A stretch of 64,000 bases of DNA from Gammaproteobacteria bacterium (GTDB taxonomy: Bacteria > Pseudomonadota > Gammaproteobacteria > GCA-001735895): the NCBI GenBank assembly GCA_050298595.1, contig JBNKUM010000103.1, forward strand, positions 2,150 to 66,149, in the 5' to 3' direction. A program made the position numbers and the translations under genes. This document shows, piece by piece, positions 6,677-55,121 of this stretch (the first letter of the stretch is position 1; the number at the start of each line of letters is the position of its first letter). Under the pieces are notes generated by a model that was not told where the DNA came from, searched no databases, and worked only from the letters and a program-made list of their open reading frames with translations.

Positions 6677-6684
6677 AACACAGT

Positions 6685-6892: not shown

Positions 6893-6984
6893 GCCGCGCT
6901 ATGGTGAGGGAATCAATAGAAAGTGTCAATGGTCGTGATACTCATGCCCGGGGAGTCATGTCCAGATACTGTGGCCGTAGCAGT

Positions 6985-8729: not shown

Positions 8730-8817
8730 CAGCGTTACAGGTTATTTTTGATAATCATGAGTAGTTTAGAATTTTCACATTCCAGCATTATCTATGGCTA
8801 AACCACTTCAGGTATTT

Positions 8818-20697: not shown

Positions 20698-20712
20698 TTT
20701 CTCAACCAGTTT

Positions 20713-21537: not shown

Positions 21538-21695
21538 GGTAAGTGATCCTGGTTTTTATGATGACCAACATTTCAACAGCATGTTAACTCTCAGCTGTGA
21601 AATCGTTCTATTATCCCGTTGCCATATTGCATCATGATCTCCAATCAGGTACCATTTTTTCACGTTAACGTATCCCCGACATAAATTAAGGATGA

Positions 21696-23885: not shown

Positions 23886-23964
23886 TTTTATGGGGCTGAT
23901 TATATTAAATTTTAACAGGGCTAATCAGTAATACCTGTTGTTTCAGGAATAAAAAGGGATAGAT

Positions 23965-36516: not shown

Positions 36517-39174
36517 TCAATGTATGTAATCTACCCCGATATCCCGACTCAATTTATCATGATAATATTTATACTTAATCTGTGTTTCTATGCCGTGACA
36601 ATCGACGCAGAAGGTGTTCTTAACATCCTTTAGGCGTAAAAAGCTGTTTAACACATTGCCCTGTTTATTTTTTTCTTCTGGATTTAACCGAGGATTTCTG
36701 GAGCTATCTTCTCCAGCTTGCCAGTGATGTGGCTCATGGCAGGTAATGCAGGCAATGGCTCCAAATTCTGAGATTTTTTCTTCATCATCCAGTAACGGCA
36801 TCACTTCTGGATCAGATCTTAAAACCAGATCCTTAGCCGGGTGCGAAAAATGTTCCACAACCATCTTATCCGCCACACACTTTTCCAGATGACAATCTAG
36901 ACAGAGTTGATCACGCTGGAATACTTTTTCGTTTTCTGTATACGCTGATATTACTCCTGAAAACAGAAAAGGTGCCTCTCCTTCTCCTCGATGCATGCTA
37001 TGGCAGCTACCACAGGCTCCACTTTGTTCGGCGGTCTGCTCAAACCTATTCATGCTTTTTTCTGCTGTAATGCGTAAATCATGATCACTATTTACAATGG
37101 CATTATTTCCTTTGTGGCAGTGGCTACATAGCTCGCCATTCTTATCGTCTTCGCGTAATACGGCTGTATCAGGTTTTCCAGCATGTACGCTATGACAACT
37201 CAGGCAGGTCATTGCGGTGATTTCTTCACCATCTATCTTAACGGCCTCTTCAAGTTTCATATTCACCGCATGCACACCTTTTTTACGCGCATCCCTTTCG
37301 TTTGTCGCATGTTGTCGTGGATGGCAGCTAGCGCATAACTTTTCGATATCTGCTGTAGTACGAGTTAACAGCTTTGAGTTTTCTCTACCGCTGTGTGCTG
37401 AATGACAAACCAGACAGGTTACCTGCTTAACCTTTACACCATTAAGCTCCACCGCCTCTTCCATTTCAATATCTACCGGATGGATACCTTTGTGATGCGC
37501 CTGTTTTTTATCCTTGCTGTGTAATTCTTGATGGCAACTTTCGCATAACTCATTGCTGTCAAAACCCGCTGGCAAAAGCTGCTCCCCAGATGCTCCATGT
37601 ATCTGGTGACAACTTTGACAGATCAACTGCTGATCAGAGCCTACACTGGCCCCTGCAAGCTTTAGTTCATTGGGTAATCCTTTTTGCAGGCTTTCAGTTC
37701 GTGCATAGCGTTCAGGATCATTTGCCGGCTCAGGTGTTTGTAAATATAGCCCTACCGGATGGTTGATCCCGCGTACAGGGTGTTGATCATCCAGCACACT
37801 ATCCAGTTTGGATTCATGACATTGCTGACATAAATCACCCTCCTTATTCAAAATTCTCAACCAGGGATTAGAATGAGATTCATACAGGGTATCTGACTCT
37901 TTTATATCTGCGGTATGCGGGGTGTGACAACTGCCGCAATAAAGTTGATCATCCCCTATCAAGGGAAACTCTGCAGGTACCTTATCCTGTTCTTCAGTTT
38001 TTGTCTTTCTGGATGGGTCTCGTTGATGATGAATATCCGGGTGCTGCTTGCCACTACCAATGCTTACACGCGAATCAATCACTGCGCCGTGGTGACAGCT
38101 ATAGCACATTTTCTGTGATGCTACGGGAAGCACGCCATCCTGATCTTTCTGCTCGCTGCGTGAGGATACAGCCCAGGAGTAGTGACAGGTATCGCAGTTT
38201 TTACGCGAGGTTTTAATGTTACCTGTGCCAGGTTTTTTTTCGAGCAGTATGCCTTTATCATCATCGCCAGATTTAAATACTTCCACGCGATTACTAATCA
38301 CATCGACCACATATAGTTTATCGTTGCGCCATGCAAGTCCAACGGGGGCTTCAAATTTCCTGGCAGTATCATCATCAACCGAGAGATAACCGCTGAACCG
38401 ACCATCGATAAAAATAGATACCTTCCCCAGATAGCTATCGCTGATAAACATTCTCCCATCATCGGCAAATGCAATTCCGTTGGGTCGGTATAATTCACCA
38501 TCGGCGATGCCAAAATGCGCAATCTTTAAATAAAGCCTTCCTTTCGGGTTAAATGCTTTAATCCGCCCATTTAAAACATCAACGACATACAGATAACCAT
38601 CCCGGTCTGCGGCGATGTGGAATGGAAATTGAAATTCTGCATCTCCCTCTCCCCGCTTACCCCAGCACTGCATGGTGGTCCCTGTAGATAGTCGAGTCTG
38701 GCACAGTGAATGATTTTTTCTGTCACTCCAGCTGATGACATCATCTTTAACACTCAACCCCACCGGCTCTGGTGGCTGTGCTGGAAATTGTTGATTGACC
38801 AGTGCAATGTTTTCTATAAATCGTCCCTTTTTGTCAAATACTGCAATTCTATGATTCGTAGTATCGGCGATAAATACTTTATCATCTGCAATCGTAATCG
38901 CCATCGGCAGATGCAATTCACCAGAGCCTCGCCCCTGTTTACCAAAGGTAAATAATCGCCTGCCTTTGGCTGAAAGTACGACAACCCGATGCTGAGCCCC
39001 ATCGAGAATGTAGAGTTGTTCTTTTTCTGAAATTACAATATCCGAGGGTTGATCCAAACCAGAACGATAACTTGCTATTTGTCTCGCATGCTGACTAACT
39101 GCTTCAACATTTTGTACTACGAGATTCAGAACACAAAAAGCTATCGATAAAAAAGTGAATCTGCTAACTGGCAT
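36517..39174 (-). CDS. NHL-repeat beta-propeller fused to a multiheme cytochrome c (14 CXXCH)
   Basis: Signal peptide. The first 300 aa or so carry NHL-type repeats (NHRIAVFDKKGRF, LNGRIKAFNPKGR, SNRVEVF). I then counted 14 CXXCH motifs in the provided translation, many arranged as paired-CXXCH modules. Confidence 0.88.
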   Translation of the reverse strand: MPVSRFTFLSIAFCVLNLVVQNVEAVSQHARQIASYRSGLDQPSDIVISEKEQLYILDGAQHRVVVLSAKGRRLFTFGKQGRGSGELHLPMAITIADDKVFIADTTNHRIAVFDKKGRFIENIALVNQQFPAQPPEPVGLSVKDDVISWSDRKNHSLCQTRLSTGTTMQCWGKRGEGDAEFQFPFHIAADRDGYLYVVDVLNGRIKAFNPKGRLYLKIAHFGIADGELYRPNGIAFADDGRMFISDSYLGKVSIFIDGRFSGYLSVDDDTARKFEAPVGLAWRNDKLYVVDVISNRVEVFKSGDDDKGILLEKKPGTGNIKTSRKNCDTCHYSWAVSSRSEQKDQDGVLPVASQKMCYSCHHGAVIDSRVSIGSGKQHPDIHHQRDPSRKTKTEEQDKVPAEFPLIGDDQLYCGSCHTPHTADIKESDTLYESHSNPWLRILNKEGDLCQQCHESKLDSVLDDQHPVRGINHPVGLYLQTPEPANDPERYARTESLQKGLPNELKLAGASVGSDQQLICQSCHQIHGASGEQLLPAGFDSNELCESCHQELHSKDKKQAHHKGIHPVDIEMEEAVELNGVKVKQVTCLVCHSAHSGRENSKLLTRTTADIEKLCASCHPRQHATNERDARKKGVHAVNMKLEEAVKIDGEEITAMTCLSCHSVHAGKPDTAVLREDDKNGELCSHCHKGNNAIVNSDHDLRITAEKSMNRFEQTAEQSGACGSCHSMHRGEGEAPFLFSGVISAYTENEKVFQRDQLCLDCHLEKCVADKMVVEHFSHPAKDLVLRSDPEVMPLLDDEEKISEFGAIACITCHEPHHWQAGEDSSRNPRLNPEEKNKQGNVLNSFLRLKDVKNTFCVDCHGIETQIKYKYYHDKLSRDIGVDYIH

Positions 39175-39176
39175 GT

Positions 39177-39959
39177 TTATCTCAACAGATCACTCATTTT
39201 TAATCGATCACCTTTCTTTTTATAGCGCGTAAAGAAATGTGCGATGCTGTTATTGGTAATTGAGTGGGTCAGCCTTTCACTTGCACCCAGATAGGAATAA
39301 TCCAGTAACTTCTGTTTTTCATCATGACAATGCTGACAACTAATCCCCTTTTTATTCAGAGGAGCATGCAGTTTTACCTTGAGTTTAGCTTTCTCTTCAT
39401 CCGCCGAATTTTTCCACTGCTGTTTCACTTCAGAAGAAAATGGATCATCCTTAAAAACAACCAGGACCTGCCCCCGGTAAACAGGTGCAATTTTTAATCC
39501 GGGCCGGGGTAATAACGAGGTTTTAGTCTTATCAGCCAGGGTATGAATCGATTGAGACACATCGATAATTTCTCCGGTATTTGGATAATCATAAGCCAGC
39601 CATTGATAATCCAGATCTAAGCCCTCGGTATTAAAGTGACAGGTCTCGCAGCTTATGTAATTGCTGTGCATATTCAAAAAGCTTCGATTCAACTCGTTAG
39701 CCTGATGAGGCTTATCCAGATGACAATTTAGACAAAAATCCTGTTTCAGTGATGCATGAGTTTCAACGCGATGATGAAAGGGATTTACATTCAGGCCATT
39801 TTTAAGCTGAATATCTTTATGCGCTTTAAGTTGTTTGCTGGCATCAGCTAGTTCGTTATCGGTAACCTGATGTGAATTAACACGATCATTAAACAGGTTC
39901 TCGGCTAAAACCGGCCAACAAAAGCTAAGCGTGAAAATGATAAAGCAAAACCTAATCAT
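39177..39959 (-). CDS. Periplasmic triheme cytochrome c
   Basis: Signal peptide MIRFCFIIFTLSFCWPVLA/EN. CLNCH, CETCH and CQHCH. Confidence 0.8.
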   Translation of the reverse strand: MIRFCFIIFTLSFCWPVLAENLFNDRVNSHQVTDNELADASKQLKAHKDIQLKNGLNVNPFHHRVETHASLKQDFCLNCHLDKPHQANELNRSFLNMHSNYISCETCHFNTEGLDLDYQWLAYDYPNTGEIIDVSQSIHTLADKTKTSLLPRPGLKIAPVYRGQVLVVFKDDPFSSEVKQQWKNSADEEKAKLKVKLHAPLNKKGISCQHCHDEKQKLLDYSYLGASERLTHSITNNSIAHFFTRYKKKGDRLKMSDLLR

Positions 39960-42198
39960 CTTTTTTATCTCCCTCTTTGTTATCCTGTTTAATACTTTCT
40001 GGAGTAGATTTTGTTCTGCTTTTAGCTGGATTATCAGGTAGTTTTTTATTCACGGACGACTTATCCTTACGTGGCGAGCGGCCCAGAACTTTTTTCTGAA
40101 AATGATCGCCTCCAACCACTGCAAAGATAACTGACTTTTTCTTACCGAATATTTTCCACAGCAACGAGCCTCCACCTAGAATTAGAATAACCGGTAATAA
40201 GGCAATAATTGCCTTAACCCAGCTTGACTCCATGCGCGACTGGTCGAGCGGGGAATCAGGATCGAGAATTGGAATGATGTCGATATCGTGTAGATCGGTT
40301 TTAACAAAGCCGTCATTCAGCGGGTTAGTAGTAAAGCCATGGCATTGCGATGCGGCACAGGTTTCTGCAAGATTCTGCGGATGCGTTGCCGCATCGGTTT
40401 CAGTATGACGCTTAATGCCATGATTAAAACCATCAGGAGCATGACAGTCTATGCAGGATGCGCCCTCCTCTACACCTGTTTTTAACAAGCGTCCATGCAG
40501 ACTCATTTCATAGCTATCACTGGCGAGAATAAATTTCGAGCCTGCTTTATGTTTCTCTCCGCTGATCGTGTCTTCAATCTCAACCGTAGCCATGCGCTTA
40601 TGATCCGCATGGCATGCATTACACATTTCATTCTTGTCAGACTTATTCCAGCGTGAGCCTATAAACCGTCGTAATATATGGCCGCCAAATTGATTCAACC
40701 ATACCTCGCCCTGATGACAGCTGCCACACTCTGTTTCCAGATGAGCGAAAGAGTCCTTAAATTTAGGGATGTCTTTTTCATTGATATATAACTCATTATC
40801 GTGACAGGCGCGGCAGGAAGGGTTTACATCCAGAGACTCTTCAAGACGATTTCCGCCAGTCAAACCTTTCGTCCAGCCGTTGCCATGTGCAGATTCCTTA
40901 AACTCATCAACCACTTCTTTATGTGTGTACGCGCCTTCACCAGAGGGTTCTTCGACATGGCATGACTCAGCACAATCCACCTCCCCGTTTTCAACCTTAT
41001 GCGGATATTGTTCTATCTTACGATGACAATCTTTACAGGGGACACTACCATGCAATGAACTGAAGTAATGCGATTCATCAATACTTGCATCACGTAACAC
41101 GCCATTTTCATCGATATACGATAACCCCTTTAAAGCATGGCAGGAAAAACAGCCATCAGGATCAGGATGTCGTTCGGAGGCAAAAACCTGTGTAACCACG
41201 ATAACCATTAAAATAAAACCAAAAAACACACCTACCGCAACGCGCTGCCAGCTGCTCACCTTCCATAGCTGTTTTTCTATGCTATGAACAGCTTTCCAGT
41301 CTGGATGAGGAAAGTATTCCACACCCTTCTTTTTTCGTTTGGGTTCAACTGAGCGGGGCACCGAAACCCAGTCTATAGCATGCCAGTCACAGACATCGAC
41401 ACACTCATGACAGGACATGCAGGAATGCTGATCGACCACTGCAATTTTATCTATCATGGTAATTGCACCGGTCATACATTTTCGTGCACAGATATTGCAT
41501 CCGGTACAACGGCTACGCTCAACTCGAATATGCCGCGTAAACCTAAACGATGAGCCCAGGCGATTGACCAGGCCATCGATTGCACCAATGGGACATAGAA
41601 ACTGACAATATCCACGCCCTTTTACCGCAAAAAAACCAAGCAGAAATAAAAGTGCCAGATTCACCAGACCGACGGCTGAAAGGATAAAGGCAATCCCCAT
41701 CAAGTCGCCACTAAACGCCTGAAAGATGCGAGGTACCGTTACAAAGTTACATAAGGTACAGGCACTAACCCCGAACATCGGCATCACAACCAGATATACG
41801 CTGAAATAACCATAACGGATGGGAACCTGAGGCAGACCACGATATTCTATTTTCCAGCGATCAGGAATCATGCGGCTGATGATTTCAGGCAAGCCACCCA
41901 TTGGACAAAGATAACCACACCACATGCGACCAAAAAAGAAACTGGTTAACAGAATAATGCTCAGTGCAATCACTCCAATCCAGGCAACGCTCATCTGGTT
42001 ACCCAGATCTTCCAGAGACATACCTGGAAAATACAGAAAAAAACGTCTCACACATACCTTACCGCAGAGATCAGGATTACCCACAATACTGGGTAAAAAG
42101 ACCCACGGGGCAAGAATGGCACAGCTTGTAAGAATGATCAGAAAGAATCGGTATTTCTGCCCGTTCGGTATTGCCTTGATGTTTTCGAAGAGTTTCAT
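39952..42198 (-). CDS. Fusion of a NapH/polyferredoxin-type membrane iron-sulfur protein and a multiheme cytochrome c
   Basis: Two CX3CP motifs (WCGYLCPMG, YCQFLCPIG). Two 4Fe-4S motifs (CTGCNICARKC, CMSCHECVDVC). After a further TM segment come six CXXCH plus one CX3CH (CAESCH) and one CX4CH (CAASQCH), then a C-terminal TM and a Lys-rich tail. I place the start at the ATG at 42198 (MKLFENIK), 5 nt after the upstream stop. The track start at 42273 would overlap the upstream gene. Confidence 0.85.
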   Translation of the reverse strand: MKLFENIKAIPNGQKYRFFLIILTSCAILAPWVFLPSIVGNPDLCGKVCVRRFFLYFPGMSLEDLGNQMSVAWIGVIALSIILLTSFFFGRMWCGYLCPMGGLPEIISRMIPDRWKIEYRGLPQVPIRYGYFSVYLVVMPMFGVSACTLCNFVTVPRIFQAFSGDLMGIAFILSAVGLVNLALLFLLGFFAVKGRGYCQFLCPIGAIDGLVNRLGSSFRFTRHIRVERSRCTGCNICARKCMTGAITMIDKIAVVDQHSCMSCHECVDVCDWHAIDWVSVPRSVEPKRKKKGVEYFPHPDWKAVHSIEKQLWKVSSWQRVAVGVFFGFILMVIVVTQVFASERHPDPDGCFSCHALKGLSYIDENGVLRDASIDESHYFSSLHGSVPCKDCHRKIEQYPHKVENGEVDCAESCHVEEPSGEGAYTHKEVVDEFKESAHGNGWTKGLTGGNRLEESLDVNPSCRACHDNELYINEKDIPKFKDSFAHLETECGSCHQGEVWLNQFGGHILRRFIGSRWNKSDKNEMCNACHADHKRMATVEIEDTISGEKHKAGSKFILASDSYEMSLHGRLLKTGVEEGASCIDCHAPDGFNHGIKRHTETDAATHPQNLAETCAASQCHGFTTNPLNDGFVKTDLHDIDIIPILDPDSPLDQSRMESSWVKAIIALLPVILILGGGSLLWKIFGKKKSVIFAVVGGDHFQKKVLGRSPRKDKSSVNKKLPDNPAKSRTKSTPESIKQDNKEGDKKDD

Positions 42199-42202
42199 AT
42201 TT

Positions 42203-43066
42203 CTATTGATCAAATTGGTGACAGGCCAGACAAAGCGTTCCATCCTTTGCAGGTAGACGCAGTAACACTTCAAACTCGAGGCGCTGGTAAGAAATAGTCA
42301 GGTTCTGATCCGTATCCTTATTCAGCTCATCCAGACGTTTTTGCTTATCCCTTTGCACGACTTCGTTCCAGTCATGATCCTGATAAGCGATACCCTTTGC
42401 CAAATCCCTGTCCTGAACCTGCTGGGATGCTTGCTTAGTTTCTATGACACCTTTTTCGTGACTGCTATGACAGGTAACACAGAGGATTTTTTTACCATCC
42501 AGTGGCAATACAAGCTGCTGCTTCTGTTCTGTCTCATGTAGCTGTTGCAACATATCGTCATCTACTTCTACCAGATGATTGAAAGCATTCAGATGAGGCG
42601 ACTTCAGGTGGCAACCAATACATAACTTCTGTGGAGGGAGACGCAAATCCAGTTCTTCGAGTGTATAGGATCGGTCTCGCTCAGGCGTTTTGACATGACA
42701 AAACTGACATTGATCTTCTTTAATATCACCCTGCTCATCCAGTAGGATATGGATGTTATTACGCTGGTACTGTTTTTCGTCATGACACTGGTAACAGAAA
42801 TCACTTAGCTCTGGATAAGGCCCCTGAATAAAGAAGTTCGCATCTTTTTTGTCCACTTCTTCATATGGAATATCTGCAATATCCTTAATGCCATGACAGG
42901 TCTTACAATCTATCTGATCCTTATCATTCAGAAGGAAATTTTTCGGGATAGTCATAGCATCGGGGACAGCCACCTGCACAACATGATGTAATGGTGGCAG
43001 CTTATTATCGGCAGAAATAGCAAGGGGCAAAAATAATGATAGTAATATCGGTAGCTTCATCATCAC
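42203..43066 (-). CDS. Periplasmic hexaheme cytochrome c
   Basis: Signal peptide MMMKLPILLSLFLPLAIS/AD. CKTCH, CYQCH, CQFCH, CIGCH, CVTCH and CLACH. Confidence 0.85.
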   Translation of the reverse strand: MMMKLPILLSLFLPLAISADNKLPPLHHVVQVAVPDAMTIPKNFLLNDKDQIDCKTCHGIKDIADIPYEEVDKKDANFFIQGPYPELSDFCYQCHDEKQYQRNNIHILLDEQGDIKEDQCQFCHVKTPERDRSYTLEELDLRLPPQKLCIGCHLKSPHLNAFNHLVEVDDDMLQQLHETEQKQQLVLPLDGKKILCVTCHSSHEKGVIETKQASQQVQDRDLAKGIAYQDHDWNEVVQRDKQKRLDELNKDTDQNLTISYQRLEFEVLLRLPAKDGTLCLACHQFDQ

Positions 43067-44028
43067 ATCCCTGCCTGTATGGATTCACCATGGCTATGGC
43101 ATTGCTTACAATCGCCGGTAATCTGATGCAACCCTGACAATCCATTGCCGGTATCCAGATCTGACTGATCGGCGGTTACCGACATCTGATGGCACATCAC
43201 ACACAACTGTGCATTATTGGTTGCGGTATTATCTATGCTGTAGGATTTATTCCTGATTGCGGGATCAAGCCGGCTCAGACCCTTTTCTGAACTATCAATG
43301 ACCAGCCCGGCATTATTAGTCCCATGCATTGCATGACAATCGGTACATTCAACCACGGTCTGATATTCATAGCCTTCCCGCAATCCGGAGAAACTATGGC
43401 TACCGGTACCTGAGGTTTCGCCATGTTTGTCAACATATTTAAAGTAATCTTCACTGCCAATCAGTGCACTGGCGTAGTCAGCTGTAATATTAAAATCTGT
43501 CTGCTGATGATCGCGGTTATGACAACGTAAACAAAATTCAGAAACTGAGCTGTATTCTGAATACAGTCCATGCGCATCTGTAAAGCGAGTTAAATCTCGA
43601 TTATTATCGAATACACCATCCATATCCGAAGCCAGATGGCAGTCTATACATGCTTCATCCTTCATCTGTGCATCATTGCCAGTGATGAAACTGTGCGTAT
43701 GCAGCCCTGTCTGTATTGGCGAAGCTGTCAGATCAGAATCGTTATGGCAAATTAAACACTGACGTGCTTCTGAGGTACCGTTGCTACCATGGCAGCCAGT
43801 ACAGCTTGCATAGCCTTTGCTTTGTACGATTGAACGAATGCTATCAGCCTGTTGATGAATCAGATTCAAACCGTGGCAACTATCACACTCGGAAAGCCCC
43901 CAGGCCAGACCGCTGCCTCCATGTGATGAAGTTAATATTAGATTGCCACTTTGAGACGAGACCGTTTCTGTCTTATCTGAATCCACGCAACCCGCCAGCA
44001 ATAAAATACTCAGCAAAAGAATTCTCAT
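43063..44028 (-). CDS. Lipoprotein octaheme cytochrome c
   Basis: Start at the ATG at 44028 (ATGA overlap with the upstream stop) gives MRILLLSILLLAGC, a lipobox. Eight CXXCH motifs. Confidence 0.85.
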   Translation of the reverse strand: MRILLLSILLLAGCVDSDKTETVSSQSGNLILTSSHGGSGLAWGLSECDSCHGLNLIHQQADSIRSIVQSKGYASCTGCHGSNGTSEARQCLICHNDSDLTASPIQTGLHTHSFITGNDAQMKDEACIDCHLASDMDGVFDNNRDLTRFTDAHGLYSEYSSVSEFCLRCHNRDHQQTDFNITADYASALIGSEDYFKYVDKHGETSGTGSHSFSGLREGYEYQTVVECTDCHAMHGTNNAGLVIDSSEKGLSRLDPAIRNKSYSIDNTATNNAQLCVMCHQMSVTADQSDLDTGNGLSGLHQITGDCKQCHSHGESIQAGM

Positions 44029-44642
44029 GGTTTTGCTCTCCGGTGACAATCGGAGCAATACGACACATTATGACAACGTCCGCAGGACTGGGTATTGATG
44101 CGCGCATCTAAGCCATGAGCAATCAGGTAACCCGGTTGATGCTTGTTGTATTTCGTCGTGTCACGCTTGAAATGACAGTCAGTACAGAATGACATATCGA
44201 GGTGACAGGTCTGACACTGCCCATCATCCAGACGGGAGTCTTCTGCATGCTGATTGATGTAATCAAAGTCATGATCAACCGGCCAGATAGCAGTCTTATC
44301 GACATGACAAAGGTCGCACTTGAAAGCTGCTTTCTGTTTATCAACGTGACAATCGTGACAGATCGCTTCCATCGGTTCGTTGGAAATGGTAGTAATTAAT
44401 TTTATATCATCGGGCTTAACAACCTTATTAGCCCCAAAGGAATGACATAACAAACAGGGATCACCTTCCTGCTCCATCGCTTTGAAATGAATCTTATGCG
44501 GATAGAAAATATCAGGGCGATCATGTCGTTTTTGCCACCAGCTATCTTTTTTAGATGAGTCATTGTCAGTATCAACTGGAGTGTCTGCGGCAGACACCCA
44601 TGCTGCAAACAGTCCAGTAAGCACAAACAGTAATCTATTCAT
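44025..44642 (-). CDS. Periplasmic heptaheme cytochrome c (c3/c7-like)
   Basis: Start at 44642 gives MNRLLFVLTGLFAAWVSA/AD. Seven CXXCH. The FYPHKIHFKA...CLLCH arrangement resembles c3/c7-type heme units. Confidence 0.85.
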   Translation of the reverse strand: MNRLLFVLTGLFAAWVSAADTPVDTDNDSSKKDSWWQKRHDRPDIFYPHKIHFKAMEQEGDPCLLCHSFGANKVVKPDDIKLITTISNEPMEAICHDCHVDKQKAAFKCDLCHVDKTAIWPVDHDFDYINQHAEDSRLDDGQCQTCHLDMSFCTDCHFKRDTTKYNKHQPGYLIAHGLDARINTQSCGRCHNVSYCSDCHRRAKP

Positions 44643-45894
44643 CAGACCACCATTTGTTGGATGCATCAAACTGGTAACTGAGCTTTAATCCGAACTGATA
44701 CTCATCGTGTAAATGTGTATTCCAGATGCTAGACATTGAAAAGGTAAAATAAAGCCCCGAACCCAACATGCGCTCCACATTGGCTTCTACGCCCACGGCC
44801 TGATTACTACCAGTTAACCACTTATATTGAGATTGAATTGCGGCACCGAAGCGGGATTTCACCAGTGGTGAAAATGAGTAATTACTGTTTGCATAGAGTG
44901 AGATAAATTCATCTTGATCCAGCTGCAAATAGTCTATCTGTAACTGATACTCTCCACCTGTATATTCATGCACCTGTGATGCGAGAGATAATCCATAACC
45001 GCGTTTCCCATACTCACGTAATACCGTGCGCGCTTTTGCTATCCATTGCGTACTGGTGTTTTGCCTAAAGTAATAACTGCCCGTAAAAGCACTTTGGCGA
45101 CCCAATTCATATACCGAATAGAACTGTTGTGTGAAAGATAATGCTGGCTCAGTTAAGGTAAAGGTTTCATAGTCAAACTGAACTCTATCGGTTTCAGTAA
45201 TATCACTGAAAATCTTGAGCTGAACCTGTTCGGCATACTCTTCACTCATCAGATAAGTCGCATTAAGGCCCACAGCAAAATCATAGCTGGACGAATTGTG
45301 GATTTTTCCATCACCCGTAAAACCCAGGTTTAAACGTGTTTCATCATCTGCTTCATCGTTAATTTTCTGCACACCAAATCTGGCAATAGCTGTATCAAAA
45401 TAGACGACAGAAAATAATGGAGAAATGTTTATCTCCGAGAAGTGAAGATCCAAGCCATATAGAGCATCACCATGAATCGCACTGTAATCATCTACACGAG
45501 AAGGCTGACCGGCATATAAATTCAGTAGCACATTATCGTTTTTGGCTTTGATCAAAGCGCCATCCAGTGTGTACATGCCCAGACTGTCATAACGCTCCAT
45601 GCGCCCAATGCGATATGATTTAACTAAACCATCCAGCTGCTTTTCAAAGTACAGCTGATACAGGTTTTCTTCATTATCGTCACCCTGCCGTAGTGCAAAA
45701 CTCAAACCAGATTCAATGCCTCTTTGCTGATCAATGATTCTTATGTCTGCATATTCTTCGATAAAACCATTCTCATCAACCAGTCGATTTCCAGCCTGCA
45801 CTCGGCTTTCTAGTCGCCCATAGAAACCAGCCTGTACACTGTTCAGGGTGAGCAACAACATGAGTATTAATAACGTGCTGAAAAGGTCTTTCAA
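44635..45894 (-). CDS. Outer-membrane beta-barrel protein (putative porin of a porin-cytochrome complex)
   Basis: TTG start overlapping the upstream stop (TTGA). Signal peptide KDLFSTLLILMLLLTLNSVQA/G. About 400 aa of alternating hydrophobic/polar beta-strand pattern, no Cys and no heme motifs. Lies between cytochrome genes. Confidence 0.7.
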   Translation of the reverse strand: MKDLFSTLLILMLLLTLNSVQAGFYGRLESRVQAGNRLVDENGFIEEYADIRIIDQQRGIESGLSFALRQGDDNEENLYQLYFEKQLDGLVKSYRIGRMERYDSLGMYTLDGALIKAKNDNVLLNLYAGQPSRVDDYSAIHGDALYGLDLHFSEINISPLFSVVYFDTAIARFGVQKINDEADDETRLNLGFTGDGKIHNSSSYDFAVGLNATYLMSEEYAEQVQLKIFSDITETDRVQFDYETFTLTEPALSFTQQFYSVYELGRQSAFTGSYYFRQNTSTQWIAKARTVLREYGKRGYGLSLASQVHEYTGGEYQLQIDYLQLDQDEFISLYANSNYSFSPLVKSRFGAAIQSQYKWLTGSNQAVGVEANVERMLGSGLYFTFSMSSIWNTHLHDEYQFGLKLSYQFDASNKWWSDE

Positions 45895-46142
45895 AGCCTT
45901 TTATTGCTATGGGAATCCGCTGCGAATTGTTGTTTGTCACCCTTTCTCAAAACAGCCCATGACACCAGCGCTATCAGAGCAACTGCACAGCTACCACAGG
46001 TATTACAGCGACCCTCCCTGGTCACTGTACAGTTTGTTGACATGGCTATATGGGTCACAGCGAGAGAAGCACCCGCAACCCATGGCGCCAGCAGTTTCAG
46101 CTGTTTTGTGGTTTTCGAGTGTTTACTTTCTGACCTGTCCAT
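45891..46142 (-). CDS. Small Cys-rich membrane protein (83 aa), function unknown
   Basis: The ORF exactly fills the gap between the 984-aa cytochrome gene (stop 46145-47) and the barrel gene (its stop overlaps that start). Contains C-x9-C-x2-C-x2-C followed by a TM segment (AVALIALVSWAVL). Confidence 0.5.
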   Translation of the reverse strand: MDRSESKHSKTTKQLKLLAPWVAGASLAVTHIAMSTNCTVTREGRCNTCGSCAVALIALVSWAVLRKGDKQQFAADSHSNKRL

Positions 46143-46144
46143 GC

Positions 46145-49099
46145 TCAACCTCTAAATGGACTCAGTCTATTTTTTCTGACCAGTGTCAGTAACATGATAT
46201 TTAGAAAGATAAAGAACAGCCCAATACTGCCACCACTACGACTCACTGCTGATCCACTAGACCCTGAAGTCGCCGTTGATCCAGCAGTCTTAGCCGCAAC
46301 TTCAGTCGTTGTGTAGTAGCTAAAGTGGCTGGTTTTAAACACGATATAGCCATCCTGCATATCTGTTGCTGCTCGTACTAGCTGGATATCTGCAGGATCA
46401 ACTTTTGTCCAGGACTCACCATCTATAGAGGTAATGACATTGACCTGATCAGCAGAGCTACTACTGCCTCTATAAGGTAGTTTTACCCATACCGGAGCAG
46501 CAAATGTTGCTAATGTCGAGCCAGACTGCTTTTTGATTTTCAGTGCAAAAACTTCTGCTCCTGTCGATAAACTACCAAACCCGGCTGCAGCGGCTTTGGT
46601 CATTTCAGGGGTATCTCCCAGCTCGACCTGTAGTACATAACCGGCGAAATCATCATCACCGGATATGACCGCAACCTGTCGAATAGACTCATCACCCTGT
46701 CTAACCTGAAACATATGAGCCTTACTATTCCTGAACTGATCTGCCAGCTGAGCAGCATCATCAGCATTCGAAATGCCTAAGCCGGACATACCCTCTTCAA
46801 TAGTCGCAACATTGGTATAGGTTTTTGCTATTGAGGTAGCTTCTACAGCGATTGCAGAACGTAGCGCCGACATAGAGGGATTAACAATACTATCGGCCAG
46901 AATATCGGAGACATTGGCTGTTACCACACCTGTTTCAGCATCCATTTTCATATAAGGAGCATCAAACGTTACAATGCCCTCAGTAACCAGACGTGGATCA
47001 GGAACTGTGGTAACCACATAGCTGTTATTTTTTCCGAAGATTCCATCATCAGATACCAGCGCACTAATGGTTGTTCCATCAGACTTATAGTTATGACATT
47101 GCTCACATTGCACCGATGATACTGCGGGTCTTGTATTGTGTGATAACAGGTACTGGTTGATTTCTGACCACACCAGAATAGCATCGGAATTTTCTATACC
47201 GCTGATTTTAAACACCTTGTCATAAGCCTGTTTCAGACCTTTAAAACCTTCATAACTATCCGGGTCATTAAACCTGACACTACCATGTGAAAATCCTGCA
47301 GTCACCTCACCTAGTACCGCCCCTGTTTCAGGGTCAACTATCTGGCCTCCGGTCACGGTGCCATGGCTATCCTTAACCGGTTGAAAGACACTGTTTCGTT
47401 GAGTTCTATTGAGAACGATCCCACTGTTTTTATCCTTCCAGTAATATCGTGCCTTTGGTTTGTAAGGTACGATTGTTTTATCGCCATTTTCAGCTTCACG
47501 ATAACGATATACAGGATCGAAAGATACTCCTTTTATTGCCTTGCCTGTGATATGGCAGGCCTGACAACTCACCACGTCCAGATGCGTTTGAGTAATCTGT
47601 TCCAGAGTACTTTGAGGGTAACCGGACATGTCACCATTTAAAGTCCAGACCTTCTTATGCGCAGTCAACATGTCTGCATCACCCGATGGATTTGCCAATT
47701 CTGCAGCCTGTGGCGATTGCTCGTGACAGTATTCACAGGATTTGGCATTGGGGTTGTAATCCATATCATTATGTACATCCATATCAGAGTTCCCTTTCAG
47801 AAAATCATGACTGGCATCTACATCAGCACTGGCTGAAGGTGGATTAAAATAATTACGCGCATGGCAGGCATTACAGTTTTCTATGGTGCGCTCTTCTCCA
47901 TTATCTTCACGCCAGATTTTCCCTTTATGTACATCGTCCTGATAATCCTCTACCAACACACCTGTTTCTTCTTCTGCAATGGCTTCAGCCCCTTCACCAA
48001 AACCATAAAATCCTCGACGTGAGTTACTGGTCAAATGACATATCATACAGTTGTCATTCGCAGGGAAACGTAACATTGGAATCTCAGCTTTTCCATCGCT
48101 ATTAAAAGCATCGGAATTCCAGGTGACATGGGGCTTTAAATTTCCATTTTTATCTTCCTTATAGAGCAGTTCTTCAGGTGTAATAATTCCATCAGCCGGT
48201 ACTGCTGTTCCAGACATATGATCGAAAGATGCCTTATCTTCACGATCAAATGACAGCAGGGTTTTATCCAGTGACTCATCATCGCTAAGATTTAGATTCA
48301 ATATTTCTAGGATGGTGGAATTCGCTTCACGAAAATGTCCCTGACTGATTAACGCGGTTATACGCATAGTCCTCAACATAGTAGAGGCAGCTCCTGTCAC
48401 CTCAAGCTCTGGATCTACAATCTTCAATGCTGTGATATCAACATGACATAACAAACAGTCATTTTCCACCACACCAGATTTTTTCCAGTCCCACTGACTG
48501 ACTACCGAACTTGCTGCAATATTATTATTTTCATCGGTGCCTCGGTTGTAATATTCTCCATCAAATTCCGTCACCGTAGCTGGATCAACTTCATCGAAAC
48601 GATTTCCATTTCGATCTTTTTCCATCCAGCCTCCGCCTGAATGACAATAGGCGCAACCCTTAACCATACCGGGAGTTCCAAGATCAGCAAAATCATGAGG
48701 ATTAGTATTTGATTTTTTTGCCTGCCAGGATGGATTATTACCCCCCATACAGTTGTAACCACCTGCATAACCAGGAGAAATCAATAATGAGATGCCATGC
48801 TTTTCTCCATAGCTATCGCTCATTTCATCGCGACCAGCTTCTATATGGAAAGCATGAGTGATGACATTGTAATCATGACAACCGCCACAGGTTTGTTTTG
48901 AGCTATAGGGCTGACCGCTGTCCAGAACGTTATTGCCCTCTTCATCCAGAATGGGGAAAGCAGGTTTATGAATATAAGGTTCATCATAAACATTTGCCTG
49001 TACAGGTCCTGCAAATGCAAAAAACACATACACGGTAATAAACCGTAGCAGAGTATTGTTAATAGCTTTAAATACTGCGTCATGGGTTGGTAAAGTCAT
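46145..49099 (-). CDS. Large secreted octaheme cytochrome c with a non-heme C-terminal domain and a GlyGly-CTERM-like sorting tail
   Basis: Signal peptide (...FFAFAGPVQA/NV). Eight widely spaced CXXCH in the first 665 aa or so, then about 270 aa without heme motifs. The tail is SGSSGSAVSRSGGSIGLFFIFLNIMLLTLVRKNR. Confidence 0.85.
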   Translation of the reverse strand: MTLPTHDAVFKAINNTLLRFITVYVFFAFAGPVQANVYDEPYIHKPAFPILDEEGNNVLDSGQPYSSKQTCGGCHDYNVITHAFHIEAGRDEMSDSYGEKHGISLLISPGYAGGYNCMGGNNPSWQAKKSNTNPHDFADLGTPGMVKGCAYCHSGGGWMEKDRNGNRFDEVDPATVTEFDGEYYNRGTDENNNIAASSVVSQWDWKKSGVVENDCLLCHVDITALKIVDPELEVTGAASTMLRTMRITALISQGHFREANSTILEILNLNLSDDESLDKTLLSFDREDKASFDHMSGTAVPADGIITPEELLYKEDKNGNLKPHVTWNSDAFNSDGKAEIPMLRFPANDNCMICHLTSNSRRGFYGFGEGAEAIAEEETGVLVEDYQDDVHKGKIWREDNGEERTIENCNACHARNYFNPPSASADVDASHDFLKGNSDMDVHNDMDYNPNAKSCEYCHEQSPQAAELANPSGDADMLTAHKKVWTLNGDMSGYPQSTLEQITQTHLDVVSCQACHITGKAIKGVSFDPVYRYREAENGDKTIVPYKPKARYYWKDKNSGIVLNRTQRNSVFQPVKDSHGTVTGGQIVDPETGAVLGEVTAGFSHGSVRFNDPDSYEGFKGLKQAYDKVFKISGIENSDAILVWSEINQYLLSHNTRPAVSSVQCEQCHNYKSDGTTISALVSDDGIFGKNNSYVVTTVPDPRLVTEGIVTFDAPYMKMDAETGVVTANVSDILADSIVNPSMSALRSAIAVEATSIAKTYTNVATIEEGMSGLGISNADDAAQLADQFRNSKAHMFQVRQGDESIRQVAVISGDDDFAGYVLQVELGDTPEMTKAAAAGFGSLSTGAEVFALKIKKQSGSTLATFAAPVWVKLPYRGSSSSADQVNVITSIDGESWTKVDPADIQLVRAATDMQDGYIVFKTSHFSYYTTTEVAAKTAGSTATSGSSGSAVSRSGGSIGLFFIFLNIMLLTLVRKNRLSPFRG

Positions 49100-51668: not shown

Positions 51669-54600
51669 TCAATATCCAGAAGCCATTTTTTTAGCCTGCA
51701 CATAATCGGTTTTACCTGAGCCAAGCCTGGGCAAACTATCCACAGTAATAATCTCAGTCGGTATCAACAGGGGGTTGATGCCTTTTTCCAGCATAGCTTG
51801 TTTCAATGACTTCAATTCTATTGATTGCTCAGTGAGTAACACCACTCTTTCACCTTTTTTATCATCGGGTAGATTAATGGCAATCACTTCTGCATCGTCA
51901 TTATCAAGGCTATTCGCAACTGCCTGTTCAACCTCGCCCAGACTGATCATTTCACCACCGATCTTGGCAAAACGCGAATAACGATCGACGATAGTTAGAT
52001 AGCCATCTTCATCCAGATGACCCTTGTCACCGGTCGCGTACCAACGGATACCTTCGACCTGATGAATGGCTGCCGCAGTTTTTTCAGCATTATCAAGATA
52101 ACCCTGCATCACCTGGGGTCCAGCGATCAATACCAGGCCATCGCAAGCTGTTTCCAGTTCCTCAAGAGTTTGAGGATCAACAACCTTGAAGCTGGTGCCA
52201 GGTAATGGCAATCCCACAGTACCCGGTTTATGACCCTGTAACTGTTTCCAGTTTGAGCGGTCAATATTGTCCGGCAGATTGACACTGGCTACTGGAGCTG
52301 TTTCGGTCGCTCCATAGCCTTCATAGATATCCTTGCCAAACTTGAGCTTGAAGGCATCGCGAACCTCTGGGTTCAGACGTTCAGCGCCGGATACTACCAG
52401 GCGCAAGCTGTCCATCATCAGAGGCTTAACTTTACTGTCCCTGGTATACAGACGCAGAAAGGTCGATGTTGCACACATAATCGTAGCCTTATATTTCGCG
52501 ACTGCTTTGGCGACACCCAGGCTATCGGTAGGGTCAGCGTGACAGATCACCGGTAAACCTTCAATCAAGGGTAGGAACTGGGTCACCGTCAAACCAAAGG
52601 CATGAAATAAAGGTAGCGAAGCCAAAACACGATCACCACCTTCCGCATTTAACACCTCAGCAACCTGTTTCAGGTTGGCAATAATATTATGGTGACTGAG
52701 CTGAATACCCTTAGGTAAACCTTCGCTACCACTGGAAAACAGGATGGCTGCTGTTTGCTCCGCATCATGATTTTTAGAATATAGTGCTCGCAACAACCAG
52801 CAGGGTAATACGCGGCTACTCAGCCATACAGCAAACATTTCTGTCTTGCTAATCGATTGCTTCAGGTCTTCGAGAAATACTACTTCAACCGATTGCAACA
52901 GCTCAGAAAAATCCAGCCCTCGTTTGGACAGCTTATCCAGAAAGCGCTGTGAGGTATAAACTGTACGAATCCCCGCCTGTTGCAATGCCGACGCAAATGC
53001 CTGACTACTCGCGCTATAGTTCAGGTTGACCAGAGTCTTACCAGCCAGTAATCCAGCCATATTGGTTATAATGCCAGCACTACTGGTCGGTAGCAGCAAT
53101 CCGATATTCTGTTCTGGAGACAGCTGACTTATGCGCCTGGAAAAAACGATCGAAGCAGTCAGCAGCTTATATGACGACAGCGGCTGCCCCATTGTATCCG
53201 CTAATGCCATCTTTAACGGATTCCGTTTGATGGCCTCAATCCAGCTATCGGCTAATGAAGGCTGCTCACTTACGAATGACTGCCATGCCAGTATCGATAA
53301 ATCGAATACACGACGTTTGAGGATTTCGGCACCGGTAGTGCGATCCAGCACTTCGCCAAAAGTGACAGACAGATCACGTCTTTGACCCGTTTTACGCATG
53401 TTCTTGAAATGCGGGTTAGCACGCGAAAACTGACTGCCCCATAAACCGTGCAGATAAAACGGTACGATCACAACATCATCGTTGGCGGCCAGGGCTGCCT
53501 TTTCATAACCATGTTTGAATTCCGATAACTGGCCGTTACGACTGATGGTACCTTCAGGGAACAGACAAACCACCTCGCCATCGTTAAGTAGCTGAGTCAT
53601 CTGTTCCAGCGCCTTTTTGCTGCCGATTCCAGACTCAATTGGGATACAGCCAAACATTTTAAAAAACCAGTTCAAGTACCAGCGCTCATAGATATTACGG
53701 ATCATCACGAAACGCACCGAGCGAGGACAGGCAATCTGTACAATGGCCCAGTCCAACCAGCTAATATGGTTACCCAGTAATAAAACACCGCCCGTAGATG
53801 GCAAATTTTGCATACCTTCCACACGTACCCGGTAACGCGCACTCATCACATAAGACAGAATAAAACGCACCAGACTCTGTGGCAGTTGATAAACCGAATA
53901 GCCAAAGCCGATCAGGGCAACCAGCGAGATCAGGTACAACAGCTGGCTACTTTCAAATTCAGCCAGTGAAAATAATACCGTCACCATCAAAAACAGCAGC
54001 ATTGAAATATTCTGGATCAGGTTGTTGGCGGCGAGTACCCGCCCCATCTGATGGCTGCCCGCATGGAATTGAATCAGTGAATTTAAGGGCACAATCAACA
54101 GTCCGCCCATGGCTCCGATAAACATAAAATCCAGCCCCATCAAAAGCGGATCATACAAACCGGGCAGAAAAAACAGGCCCGCAGCAATACCCGCTGCAGC
54201 AACTGGAATCAGGCCGGTCTCGATATAGTTTCTAGAGGCGCGCGCTGCAATCATTGAGCCCAGGGCAATACCGATGCCAGAAACCGCCATAATGATCTGA
54301 ATGATGACGGTATTGGTTTCACCAGTTTGTTGTTTGGCAAATGAGGGAAAGGCCGCCAGCATAACCTGGCCGATAGACCAGAACAGAGACAGCCCGATGA
54401 TTGACTGAAAAATCACATGGCTTTTAACAACAGGCCGAAGGTTATCTTTTGTCATTTGCCCTTTGGCAAATTCACTCATATCAAACCTTTGCTGATGATC
54501 GGTTTGTTCCAGCTGTGGTAAGCGATACATCATGATCAGTTCCAGAATACTGGTAGCAATCAGGATATAACCAACCGGAATAAGCGTAACCAGAATTTCC

Positions 54601-55121
54601 GATTTACTTAAAGCACCATCTGGATAGAAAGACTCGAACAGTATAGAGAACAATAAGGTGCCAGAGAGAATGCCGATGATAGAAATCGCCTGTACCAGTC
54701 CATTACCCTGTGCCAGATTTTCCTTACCGAATAGCGACTTGATATAACCGTATTTGGCCGGCGAATAAATCGCTGACTGTGCAGCGAGCAGAAAGGTCAT
54801 GCCAAATGCAGGCCAGAACCAGCCCAGTGAATAAAACACCGTGATGCCACAGGTCAAACCGACCGCCACCCAGGCAGCGCCTTTCATCACTGAACTCTTG
54901 GCATATTTATCAGACAGAAAACCCGCTGTACTGAACATCAGAATAAAAGGCAGCAGGATGAGCGCATTGACGGTCGCGGTCAGGAAGACCTGCTCACTAC
55001 CGTCGTATACCTTGAAGATGGTGTTCTGGATAACGATTTTGTGCCCGAGGTCAACGACCGTATTGAGAAACACGGCTGTGAGAAATGGGATAGCCCCAAT
55101 GATGTTAAACAGTTTTTTCAT
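51669..55121 (-). CDS. aas: Triple fusion: LplT-like MFS lysophospholipid transporter, PlsC-type acyltransferase and acyl-ACP synthetase (Aas)
   Basis: About 400 aa of MFS. HX4D acyltransferase motif (GNHISWLDW). AMP-binding motifs (LFSSGSEGLPKG, YGATET, GDKG...DR.KD-like). Confidence 0.85.
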   Translation of the reverse strand: MKKLFNIIGAIPFLTAVFLNTVVDLGHKIVIQNTIFKVYDGSEQVFLTATVNALILLPFILMFSTAGFLSDKYAKSSVMKGAAWVAVGLTCGITVFYSLGWFWPAFGMTFLLAAQSAIYSPAKYGYIKSLFGKENLAQGNGLVQAISIIGILSGTLLFSILFESFYPDGALSKSEILVTLIPVGYILIATSILELIMMYRLPQLEQTDHQQRFDMSEFAKGQMTKDNLRPVVKSHVIFQSIIGLSLFWSIGQVMLAAFPSFAKQQTGETNTVIIQIIMAVSGIGIALGSMIAARASRNYIETGLIPVAAAGIAAGLFFLPGLYDPLLMGLDFMFIGAMGGLLIVPLNSLIQFHAGSHQMGRVLAANNLIQNISMLLFLMVTVLFSLAEFESSQLLYLISLVALIGFGYSVYQLPQSLVRFILSYVMSARYRVRVEGMQNLPSTGGVLLLGNHISWLDWAIVQIACPRSVRFVMIRNIYERWYLNWFFKMFGCIPIESGIGSKKALEQMTQLLNDGEVVCLFPEGTISRNGQLSEFKHGYEKAALAANDDVVIVPFYLHGLWGSQFSRANPHFKNMRKTGQRRDLSVTFGEVLDRTTGAEILKRRVFDLSILAWQSFVSEQPSLADSWIEAIKRNPLKMALADTMGQPLSSYKLLTASIVFSRRISQLSPEQNIGLLLPTSSAGIITNMAGLLAGKTLVNLNYSASSQAFASALQQAGIRTVYTSQRFLDKLSKRGLDFSELLQSVEVVFLEDLKQSISKTEMFAVWLSSRVLPCWLLRALYSKNHDAEQTAAILFSSGSEGLPKGIQLSHHNIIANLKQVAEVLNAEGGDRVLASLPLFHAFGLTVTQFLPLIEGLPVICHADPTDSLGVAKAVAKYKATIMCATSTFLRLYTRDSKVKPLMMDSLRLVVSGAERLNPEVRDAFKLKFGKDIYEGYGATETAPVASVNLPDNIDRSNWKQLQGHKPGTVGLPLPGTSFKVVDPQTLEELETACDGLVLIAGPQVMQGYLDNAEKTAAAIHQVEGIRWYATGDKGHLDEDGYLTIVDRYSRFAKIGGEMISLGEVEQAVANSLDNDDAEVIAINLPDDKKGERVVLLTEQSIELKSLKQAMLEKGINPLLIPTEIITVDSLPRLGSGKTDYVQAKKMASGY

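Follow-up and report, generated by a model that had tools for sequence, protein, structure and literature searches.

Does a single reading frame that runs from an iron-sulfur (Fe-S) membrane protein straight into a multihaem cytochrome encode a real protein, and, if it does, at which point of an electron transfer chain could such a protein act? This question is raised by a gene, here called g6, in a stretch of 64,000 nucleotides from a gammaproteobacterium (assembly GCA_050298595.1, contig JBNKUM010000103.1, positions 2,150 to 66,149), the whole of which is referred to as the window and provides the coordinates used throughout. The gene is located on the minus strand at 39952..42198, starts with ATG and encodes 748 residues. 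The original prediction, made from the letters alone, described it as a NapH-type polyferredoxin joined through an extra transmembrane (TM) helix to a periplasmic haem domain, and gave it the place that CymA, CbcL or ImcH occupy in known pathways of extracellular electron transfer (EET). The analysis described here establishes that the fusion is real and leads to the proposal, held with a probability of about 0.7, that g6 acts as the electron gate in the inner membrane for a conserved EET conduit of multihaem cytochromes, which is encoded by nine genes and spans the envelope. All the motifs, TM segments and the lysine-rich tail listed in the original prediction were found again by script, and the protein can be divided as follows, with the type of evidence in brackets.

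39952..42198, minus strand: whole open reading frame (ORF) of g6, with a NapH-like polyferredoxin, a linking TM helix, an octahaem domain, a TM anchor and a basic tail (ORF call, motifs, homologues).
41623..42147, minus strand: four-helix membrane module with two Fer4_5 repeats (hydropathy, charge bias, AlphaFold helices, Pfam, alignment with NapH).
42052..42066, minus strand: CGKVC (C45 and C49), predicted to lie in the periplasmic loop that joins TM1 to TM2 (99% conserved; absent from E. coli NapH).
41902..41919, minus strand: first CX3CP motif, CGYLCP, residues 94-99, at the cytoplasmic end of TM2 (99% conserved; also in E. coli NapH).
41749..41760, minus strand: CTLC (C147 and C150), at the outer end of TM3 (100% conserved; absent from E. 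coli NapH).
41590..41607, minus strand: second CX3CP motif, CQFLCP, residues 198-203, at the cytoplasmic end of TM4 (100% conserved; also in E. coli NapH).
41374..41529, minus strand: cytoplasmic 2x[4Fe-4S] ferredoxin domain, residues 224-275 (Pfam Fer4 families, PDB profile matches, conservation).
41179..41262, minus strand: linking helix TM5, residues 313-340 (signal-peptide layout, split homologues, indel-free junction).
40225..41178, minus strand: periplasmic octahaem c-type cytochrome domain, residues 341-658 (motifs, conservation, Pfam, AlphaFold).
40147..40224, minus strand: C-terminal anchor TM6, residues 659-684 (hydropathy; a long helix in both models).
39955..40146, minus strand: cytoplasmic basic tail, residues 685-748, with GGxxF at residues 696-700 (alignment, composition).

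That a frameshift in sequencing or assembly might have joined two genes at the junction had been named beforehand as the circumstance that would undo the prediction and, in fact, split versions of g6 do occur, in 18 genomes. Nevertheless, when fused and split versions were sought in other genomes, in a locus scan of one genome per species which gave 78 loci, the ORF was found to be uninterrupted over the part lying on the contig in 57 of them, coming from many independent studies, split in 18 and disrupted elsewhere in 3, the breakpoint of the 18 split loci falling exactly at the polyferredoxin/cytochrome junction. In addition, more than 110 full-length homologues, in separate clusters and 49-88% identical to g6, were retrieved by a protein search; in the databases they are named solely "4Fe-4S binding protein", "polyferredoxin" or the like. 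Across the junction, moreover, the sequences of five independent assemblies show no indels, and the changes are mostly at third codon positions, that is, mainly at synonymous ones. Because of the 57 uninterrupted ORFs and of this indel-free junction, the frameshift explanation is excluded; the fusion is real, and the probability left to an artefact is negligible. As for the start, the ATG at 42198 lies 4 nucleotides past the stop of the upstream gene g5, and an alternative TTG at 42273 was rejected, since it would overlap g5 by 71 nucleotides and most homologues align from MKLF; longer called N-termini are present in two homologues (P0001 and P0040).

The cytochrome half carries six CXXCH sites (residues 350, 388, 462, 491, 526 and 582), together with CAESCH, a CX3CH site, at residue 409 and CAASQCH, a CX4CH site, at residue 614. 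In the alignment of 111 full-length homologues, on which the conservation figures for g6 are based, all 16 haem-site cysteines and the 8 proximal histidines are 99-100% conserved, the third site being always CX3CH and the eighth always CX4CH. The multihaem domain announced by the original prediction is therefore retained, and its range of six to eight haems is replaced by a count of eight. A seventh CXXCH, CMSCH at residue 260, belongs to the second Fe-S motif and is no haem site. Since eight further histidines (383, 400, 426, 438, 507, 568, 593 and 637) are invariant in addition to the proximal ones, the sequence suggests eight bis-histidine haems. The Pfam check that had been proposed identified here the MtrC/MtrF domain II/IV (PF22113) with 36.5 bits, against a cut-off of 30, and the AlphaFold model of the haem domain, based on a 113-sequence alignment, reached a mean predicted local distance difference test score (pLDDT) of 86.4; a search of the PDB with this model gave no fold neighbour, the best E-value being 3.8.

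In the polyferredoxin half, the four helices of the membrane module span residues 18-36 (TM1), 71-89 (TM2), 125-150 (TM3) and 169-192 (TM4). Two stretches are matched by Pfam Fer4_5 (PF12801), with 57.6 bits against a cut-off of 22, and several 4Fe-4S dicluster families are matched as well; a profile search of the PDB retrieved only generic 2x[4Fe-4S] ferredoxin domains (RnfB, MvhB, HdrA). The two CX2CX2CX3C motifs, located by script at residues 231 and 260, comprise cysteines 231, 234, 237, 241, 260, 263, 266 and 270, all of them 100% conserved. Each of the pseudo-symmetric Fer4_5 repeats supplies one inner and one outer pair of cysteines, and the four outer cysteines may form disulfides, act as a thiol relay or provide the ligands of an extra centre. 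Considering the whole protein, 32 of the 33 cysteines are at least 99% conserved and the eight proximal and eight distal histidines are invariant, so that the cofactor sites are clearly under strong selection.

Regarding topology, the N-terminus, the loops at residues 90-131 and 188-319 and the tail of g6 are rich in lysine and arginine (19 such residues in the 67 of the lysine-rich tail), whereas the haem domain (324 residues) is acidic, with 56 aspartates and glutamates against 32 lysines and arginines. Since this pattern fits the positive-inside rule, an N-in orientation is predicted, which puts the Fe-S motifs on the cytoplasmic side and the haem domain on the periplasmic one. The helices modelled by AlphaFold match the topology drawn from hydropathy and charge, and the two-sided arrangement of the original prediction is thus supported, as a prediction, by all three. 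The attachment of c-type haem takes place solely outside the cytoplasm, and the Fe-S domain has no Tat signal; Fe-S clusters inside and haems outside is the sole arrangement compatible with both Fe-S insertion and c-haem attachment. An anchor similar to TM6 is also found in the stand-alone and cytochrome-b-fused relatives of the octahaem module. Within the GGxxF motif of the tail, G696 and F700 are invariant and G697 is at least 90% conserved in a 24-sequence alignment.

The linking helix, whose hydrophobic core covers residues 320-338, follows the n-h-c pattern of Sec signal peptides, consisting of KVSSWQR, the hydrophobic core and TQVFA/SE (the chain running on as TQVFA/SERHPDPDGC, with the slash at the putative cut). 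Position -1 is alanine in 104 of the 111 homologues and position -3 is V, A, L, S or T in 106, and the true N-terminal signal peptide of split homologues (L057-L063 and L069-L074) aligns at this very place. Because the linker resembles a cleavable signal peptide, signal peptidase may cleave g6 behind Ala340 and so leave two subunits, each anchored in the membrane. Consequently, the single polypeptide of the original prediction holds for the reading frame, and the mature protein may be two chains. A precedent may be found in Bradyrhizobium japonicum FbcH, which is reportedly a polyprotein of cytochromes b and c1 that is cleaved at a signal peptide inside the chain. Both proteins unite a membrane redox protein and a c-type cytochrome in one chain by means of a signal-peptide-like helix, but the partner domains of FbcH are unrelated to those of g6, for which cleavage is a prediction only.

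The closest well-known relative of the membrane half is E. coli NapH (b2204), which shares with g6 the four TM helices, the CX3CP motifs after TM2 and TM4 and, at the cytoplasmic C-terminus, the two CX2CX2CX3C motifs; the two proteins are 25% identical over 220 residues (E=3e-11). Nevertheless, g6 has four extra invariant outer cysteines, a fifth helix and the fused octahaem domain, and lacks nap genes and a NapG partner. In view of a score of 63 bits where the NapH model demands 213, of the low identity, of the absence of nap neighbours and of the four extra cysteines, g6 is NapH-like and not NapH. The NapH/MauN/NosH/CcoG architecture originally assigned stands, Fer4_5 being above its cut-off, and NapH proper is abandoned; any quinol dehydrogenase activity of g6 would be an analogy. 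The wider Fer4_5/COG0348 polyferredoxins include MauN, NosH, NosR, PceC and CcoG. NosR and PceC follow the same design as g6, an Fe-S membrane module of the NapH-like kind to which a redox domain outside the cytosol is covalently attached. In their case, however, this domain is an N-terminal flavinylated FMN-binding one (FMN, flavin mononucleotide) and the partner is a soluble reductase, whereas g6 has a C-terminal eight-haem cytochrome and a porin-cytochrome operon; neither Pfam nor NCBIfam found an FMN_bind domain in g6. It has been proposed that NapH-like proteins pass electrons across the membrane by way of their Fe-S clusters (Meheust et al., bioRxiv 10.1101/2021.01.07.425746).

Among the proteins known from EET, CbcL of Geobacter sulfurreducens likewise stands at the start of the chain and unites a periplasmic multihaem domain with a redox module in the inner membrane, in that case nine haems joined to a dihaem cytochrome b of the HydC/FdnI type, all haems being bis-histidine (PMC9129911). 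The two differ in that the membrane module of g6 is of the Fe-S type and comes first in the chain, which reverses the domain order, and in that nine CXXCH sites stand against eight haems, two of them at non-standard sites; no match of g6 to the cytochrome b family PF01292 was found with Pfam. Geobacteraceae and Desulfuromonadales proteins of CbcL-like length were distant matches (24-28%) to the cytochrome-b relatives described below, and CbcL itself was compared by architecture. The inner-membrane quinol dehydrogenases CymA/NapC/NirT and ImcH have the role that is proposed for g6, that of linking an inner-membrane redox pool to periplasmic cytochromes, yet their membrane anchoring and cofactors are unlike those of g6, in which Pfam found no tetrahaem NapC/NirT domain (PF03264). 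In one ANME-2c genome a NapH homologue adjoins an 8-haem cytochrome, neither fusion nor characterisation being described. Literature searches aimed at the fusion or at the operon found no paper characterising the fusion. The statement that no characterised example was known therefore holds, with the qualification that the homologous operon of Methylococcus capsulatus had already been described (PMC4831470).

Other clusters were considered as possible representatives of the same system and rejected. The Uet cluster of Tenderiales contains NHL proteins, but has no Fe-S membrane protein and has different cytochromes; in PCC3/PCC4 of iron oxidisers the inner-membrane proteins are hypothetical ones of about 300 residues with five TM helices; the Methylobacter MtrAB-like cluster (2026) is different; and the Desulfovibrio ferrophilus DFE_0448-0465 clusters have the NHL-cytochrome pairing alone in common with it.

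The genomic surroundings bear directly on the function. The operon consists of nine genes on one strand (36517-49099), with g6 as the sixth, overlaps of 4-8 nucleotides and 54 haem motifs in total. Apart from g6, its members are as follows.

46145-49099, minus strand: g1, a 984-residue, 8-haem cytochrome with a GlyGly-CTERM tail (TIGR03501, 16.3 bits, cut-off 15.5).
45891-46148, minus strand: g1b, an 85-residue cysteine-rich membrane protein (CNTCGSC motif, one hydrophobic helix).
44635..45894, minus strand: g2, a 419-residue protein with a signal peptide, presumed to be an outer-membrane beta-barrel (syntenic).
42203..44669, minus strand: g3 (7 haems), g4 (8-haem lipoprotein with a LAGC lipobox) and g5 (6 haems) (syntenic).
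39177..39959, minus strand: g7, a trihaem cytochrome of 260 residues with an 8-nucleotide overlap with g6 (ORF list, motifs).
36517..39174, minus strand: g8, an NHL beta-propeller with a 14-haem cytochrome, 885 residues (syntenic in nearly all loci).

The last 30 or so codons of g1 encode a Ser/Gly-rich linker, GG, a hydrophobic helix and a basic stub, which looks like a rhombosortase-type sorting signal on a presumed extracellular cytochrome. For g1b no family match was obtained, and its position between g1 and the presumed porin g2 is kept in nearly all 78 loci; g2 had no match in Pfam or NCBIfam. According to tblastn, the gene order of the operon is kept in nearly all of the 78 loci. No nap genes or NapG-like partner were found near g6, the neighbours being multihaem cytochromes and the presumed porin, and the same is true of the 78 genomes. 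Consequently, the position equivalent to CymA, CbcL or ImcH that had been suggested for g6 gains support, both from its place within a conserved operon of a presumed porin and multihaem cytochromes and from the homology of its haem domain to proteins of CbcL-like architecture.

The hosts of the 78 loci include Chromatiales, Thiotrichaceae, Sedimenticola, Candidatus Thiodiazotropha, tubeworm endosymbionts and Methylococcales, as well as the Beggiatoaceae Ca. Venteria, Parabeggiatoa, Halobeggiatoa, Thioploca and Thiomargarita. Further hosts are an Oleiphilaceae genome (L023), and metagenome-assembled genomes (MAGs) labelled Magnetococcales and Deltaproteobacteria; the Oleiphilaceae genome is the only one of these records without a MAG or Candidatus label.

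A counterpart of the operon exists in a cultured methanotroph. The cluster of M. capsulatus str. Texas (L072) comprises 11 genes, 8 cytochromes and, by our count, 58 CXXCH motifs, the same figures as those given for MCA0424-MCA0434 of strain Bath, the "copper-responding cluster 1" (Larsen and Karlsen 2016, PMC4831470); from these gene and haem counts we infer the match to the Bath locus tags. The gene order is the same and the g6 counterpart is 52% identical, but the module is divided there into a 349-residue NapH-like protein and a 981-residue octahaem/TM/CysJ-like one, and the large g1 cytochrome is present in two copies. The Bath cluster is induced under copper limitation, i.e. copper-repressed, is of unknown function and has a putative Fur box upstream; two of its cytochromes, MCA0424 and MCA0426, were found on the cell surface, MCA0427 is described as a beta-barrel protein, and the Fe-S protein and the flavoprotein fusion were left undiscussed (PMC4831470). 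Furthermore, M. capsulatus has been reported to produce anodic current and to reduce ferrihydrite (PMC6281684).

Natural variants of the gene indicate which parts belong together. In seven related gammaproteobacterial MAGs the NapH-like part stops before the linker and the cytochrome opens with a signal peptide of the usual type; the Methylococcales version of the NapH-like protein retains its C-terminal helix, and the cytochrome has a signal peptide of its own. Conversely, in several homologues (P0069, P0074, P0076, P0078, P0082 and P0088) g7 is fused to the C-terminus through one extra helix. The fission of g6 and its fusion with g7 show that these parts are functionally linked. In Methylococcus and relatives (L070, L072, L074 and P0121) the basic tail is replaced by a complete cytoplasmic flavodoxin/FAD/NAD(P) reductase (FAD, flavin adenine dinucleotide; NAD(P), nicotinamide adenine dinucleotide (phosphate)) of the CysJ type (TIGR01931 cysJ, 698 bits; Pfam PF00258, PF00667 and PF00175), attached at the cytoplasmic end of TM6, which points to an input of electrons from cytoplasmic NADPH, one that the original prediction had left out of account. 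In the locus of strain Texas (L072, 11058-14003), as in the other three, one chain thus combines periplasmic c-haems and cytoplasmic FMN/FAD.

An exhaustive search with the haem domain of g6 as query extended the comparison to the wider octahaem cytochromes (30-38% identity, E down to 1e-33). Elsewhere, the octahaem-plus-anchor module occurs as stand-alone proteins of about 340-470 residues, and in Desulfobacterota it is fused to a cytochrome b of the FdnI/HydC type (PF01292; P0128, P0135, P0142 and P0144), the haem domains of the latter being 32% identical to that of g6 at an E-value of about 1e-31; fusions to cytochrome b plus a g7-like trihaem domain were also found. The order of CXXCH, CX3CH and CX4CH sites is the same in all three of these forms as in g6. 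Since the cytochrome-b versions also adjoin NHL, g7-like and g8-like genes, the octahaem/trihaem/NHL/14-haem periplasmic set is the constant part of these systems and the membrane module the exchangeable one. Two Desulfobacterota metagenome contigs (L080, 6368-16363, and L082, 3234-17421) carry the octahaem module twice per cluster, once stand-alone beside a cytochrome b with a g7-like tail and once fused to cytochrome b, with NHL-propeller and g8-like cytochromes alongside.

Outside the operon, the window contains several other groups of genes. On the minus strand, 1148-8729 is a cobalamin salvage and uptake operon (CobS, histidine phosphatase, CobT, CobU, CobQ, periplasmic binding protein, ATP-binding cassette (ABC) ATPase and FecCD permease), and 51669-55121 encodes a 1150-residue triple fusion of a major facilitator superfamily (MFS) transporter, an acyltransferase and an AMP-binding domain, with a lysophospholipid transporter/Aas-like architecture. 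On the plus strand, 9650-10432 encodes a 260-residue protein with a weak proteasome-subunit match (PF00227, E=5.6e-9), which may be of the Anbu type, and at 19042-26853 a Ser/Thr kinase, a protein with Sel1 repeats and a caspase domain (Peptidase_C14) and a 962-residue autotransporter with PKD/Big_1 domains are all adjacent. The G+C content is 0.49-0.58 over bases 1-10000 and 0.36-0.50 in the remainder of the window.

In the proposed role of g6 as the inner-membrane electron gate, the four-TM NapH-type module would hold two [4Fe-4S] clusters and a CX3CP-bound centre at the cytoplasmic face, one more helix would lead into the periplasm, and eight bis-histidine c-haems would be kept near the membrane by the C-terminal anchor. 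Electrons would pass from the reducing pool of the cell through the NapH-like module to the eight haems, from these to the trihaem g7 and the NHL-14-haem g8, and then by way of the other periplasmic cytochromes to the lipoprotein and the secreted GlyGly-CTERM cytochromes around the presumed porin; cofactor occupancy, partners, donor and direction are inferred, while what the sequences show are the motifs, their conservation, the predicted topology, the synteny and the alternative architectures. Concerning the immediate donor in the source organism, quinol oxidised at the membrane module has close to an even chance, favoured by the analogy with NapH and by the relatives that have, in place of the NapH-like part, a cytochrome b from a family that reacts with quinones. 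A cytoplasmic reductant acting through the Fe-S domain is a possible, if doubtful, alternative in this organism, favoured, at least in Methylococcus, by the strictly conserved ferredoxin domain and by the CysJ-like fusion on the same face. A strict analogue of NapH or CymA, in which the membrane module oxidises quinol and hands the electrons straight to the haems, the cytoplasmic Fe-S clusters being accessory, is a tentative proposition somewhat short of even odds. It would account for the layout of four TM helices, two CX3CP and two [4Fe-4S] motifs common to g6 and E. coli NapH, and for the Desulfobacterota proteins in which the NapH-like part is replaced by an FdnI/HydC-family cytochrome b, that family being quinone-reactive. 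On the other hand, g6 is far below the NapH cut-offs and has no NapG-like partner or nap genes, all 16 cysteines of the cytoplasmic face are 99-100% conserved, and the NADPH-diflavin reductase placed by Methylococcus on the Fe-S face would make little sense if the clusters were bystanders. Another reading is a quinone-independent transmembrane wire, in which a cytoplasmic reductant (in Methylococcus NADPH, by way of the CysJ-like domain; in other lineages ferredoxin, flavodoxin or a flavoprotein that docks there) feeds the two [4Fe-4S] clusters, the CX3CP centre, possibly a centre at the outer cysteines, and haem 1, in its logic a bacterial counterpart of the NOX/FRE NADPH oxidoreductases. The attachment of the CysJ-like domain at the cytoplasmic end of TM6, the invariant ferredoxin domain, cysteines 45, 49, 147 and 150, which are invariant, are predicted to lie on the outer side and have no counterpart in E. 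coli NapH, the pseudo-symmetry of the inner and outer pairs and the published proposal of transmembrane Fe-S transfer cited above all argue for it. Nevertheless, most lineages, including the source organism, have no flavoprotein domain; in a membrane protein inserted by Sec, a periplasmic Fe-S cluster would be an unusual feature, and the outer cysteines could be disulfides; and the CysJ-like domain might instead pass its electrons by way of the Fe-S clusters to quinone. The wire is unlikely, and its more specific form, a quinone-independent one with a second centre made of the four outer cysteines and, in this organism, ferredoxin or a docking partner as donor, slightly more so.

The direction of flow within the proposed conduit is a separate matter. 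Outward flow, serving as an electron sink when oxygen or nitrate is scarce, is judged the more probable direction, because of the NADPH-linked variant and of the electrochemistry of M. capsulatus. The reverse, in which the outer cytochromes take up electrons from an extracellular donor (a cathode, a partner cell, Fe(II) or reduced minerals) and g6 passes them on to the quinone pool or to cytoplasmic acceptors, would suit the sulfur-oxidising chemolithoautotrophs that make up most of the hosts; related porin-cytochrome systems are thought to be reversible (PMC10734462), and electrode-oxidising bacteria exist in related orders, with different clusters. This inward use is considered improbable, since NADPH is a low-potential donor and the Methylococcus variant fits outward flow better, M. 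capsulatus gives anodic current, and inward movement of electrons opposes the membrane potential. Finally, g6 could be a helper, either a thiol-reducing device for cytochrome maturation, its outer CX3C and CX2C pairs keeping apocytochrome cysteines reduced, or a cupric or ferric reductase for metal acquisition. The outer pairs do include a CXXC, the M. capsulatus operon is copper-repressed with a putative Fur box, and CcoG, a COG0348 member of the same superfamily, is a cupric reductase. Eight invariant bis-histidine haems and a suite of porin, lipoprotein and secreted cytochromes, however, exceed the needs of a maturation factor, and the same octahaem module is paired with cytochrome b in other lineages, so that a helper role is very improbable. 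Several observations weigh against the electron gate itself, or against parts of it. The full-length AlphaFold model of g6, built with 24 sequences, is poor (pLDDT 56.6), and Foldseek with this model returned noise alone. The score of g6 is 63.1 bits against the NapH/MauN cut-off of 213.05 (TIGR02163) and 58.3 against 234 (NF007013), and, to our knowledge, the way in which NapH itself handles quinol is not settled. The hosts being mostly sulfur-oxidising autotrophs, inward uptake is on that evidence equally conceivable. The porin assignment of g2 rests on its position and on the published annotation of MCA0427 (PMC4831470), and the M. capsulatus mutant assayed for current is a deletion of MCA0421 alone, a locus outside the operon (PMC6281684).

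In sum, g6 combines known modules in a way that is uncharacterised and widespread. Outside Shewanella and Geobacter, no part of EET is less well understood than the inner-membrane step, and the module of g6 is a concrete, widely conserved candidate for it in groups that include the symbionts of lucinid clams and tubeworms, Sedimenticola, the giant sulfur bacteria and the aerobic methanotrophs. The fused, split, CysJ-fused and cytochrome-b-swapped variants constitute a ready-made natural experiment on the function of the module, and the gene is present in cultured M. capsulatus, an organism in which a markerless deletion has been made (PMC6281684). Should the cytoplasmic clusters prove to be the point of electron entry, this would bear on the mechanism of the whole NapH/NosR/PceC class. 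If, moreover, the Fe-S wire were true, it would be the first Fe-S route over a bacterial inner membrane to feed an extracellular conduit, and it would suggest a purpose for the cytoplasmic clusters of NapH, NosR and PceC.

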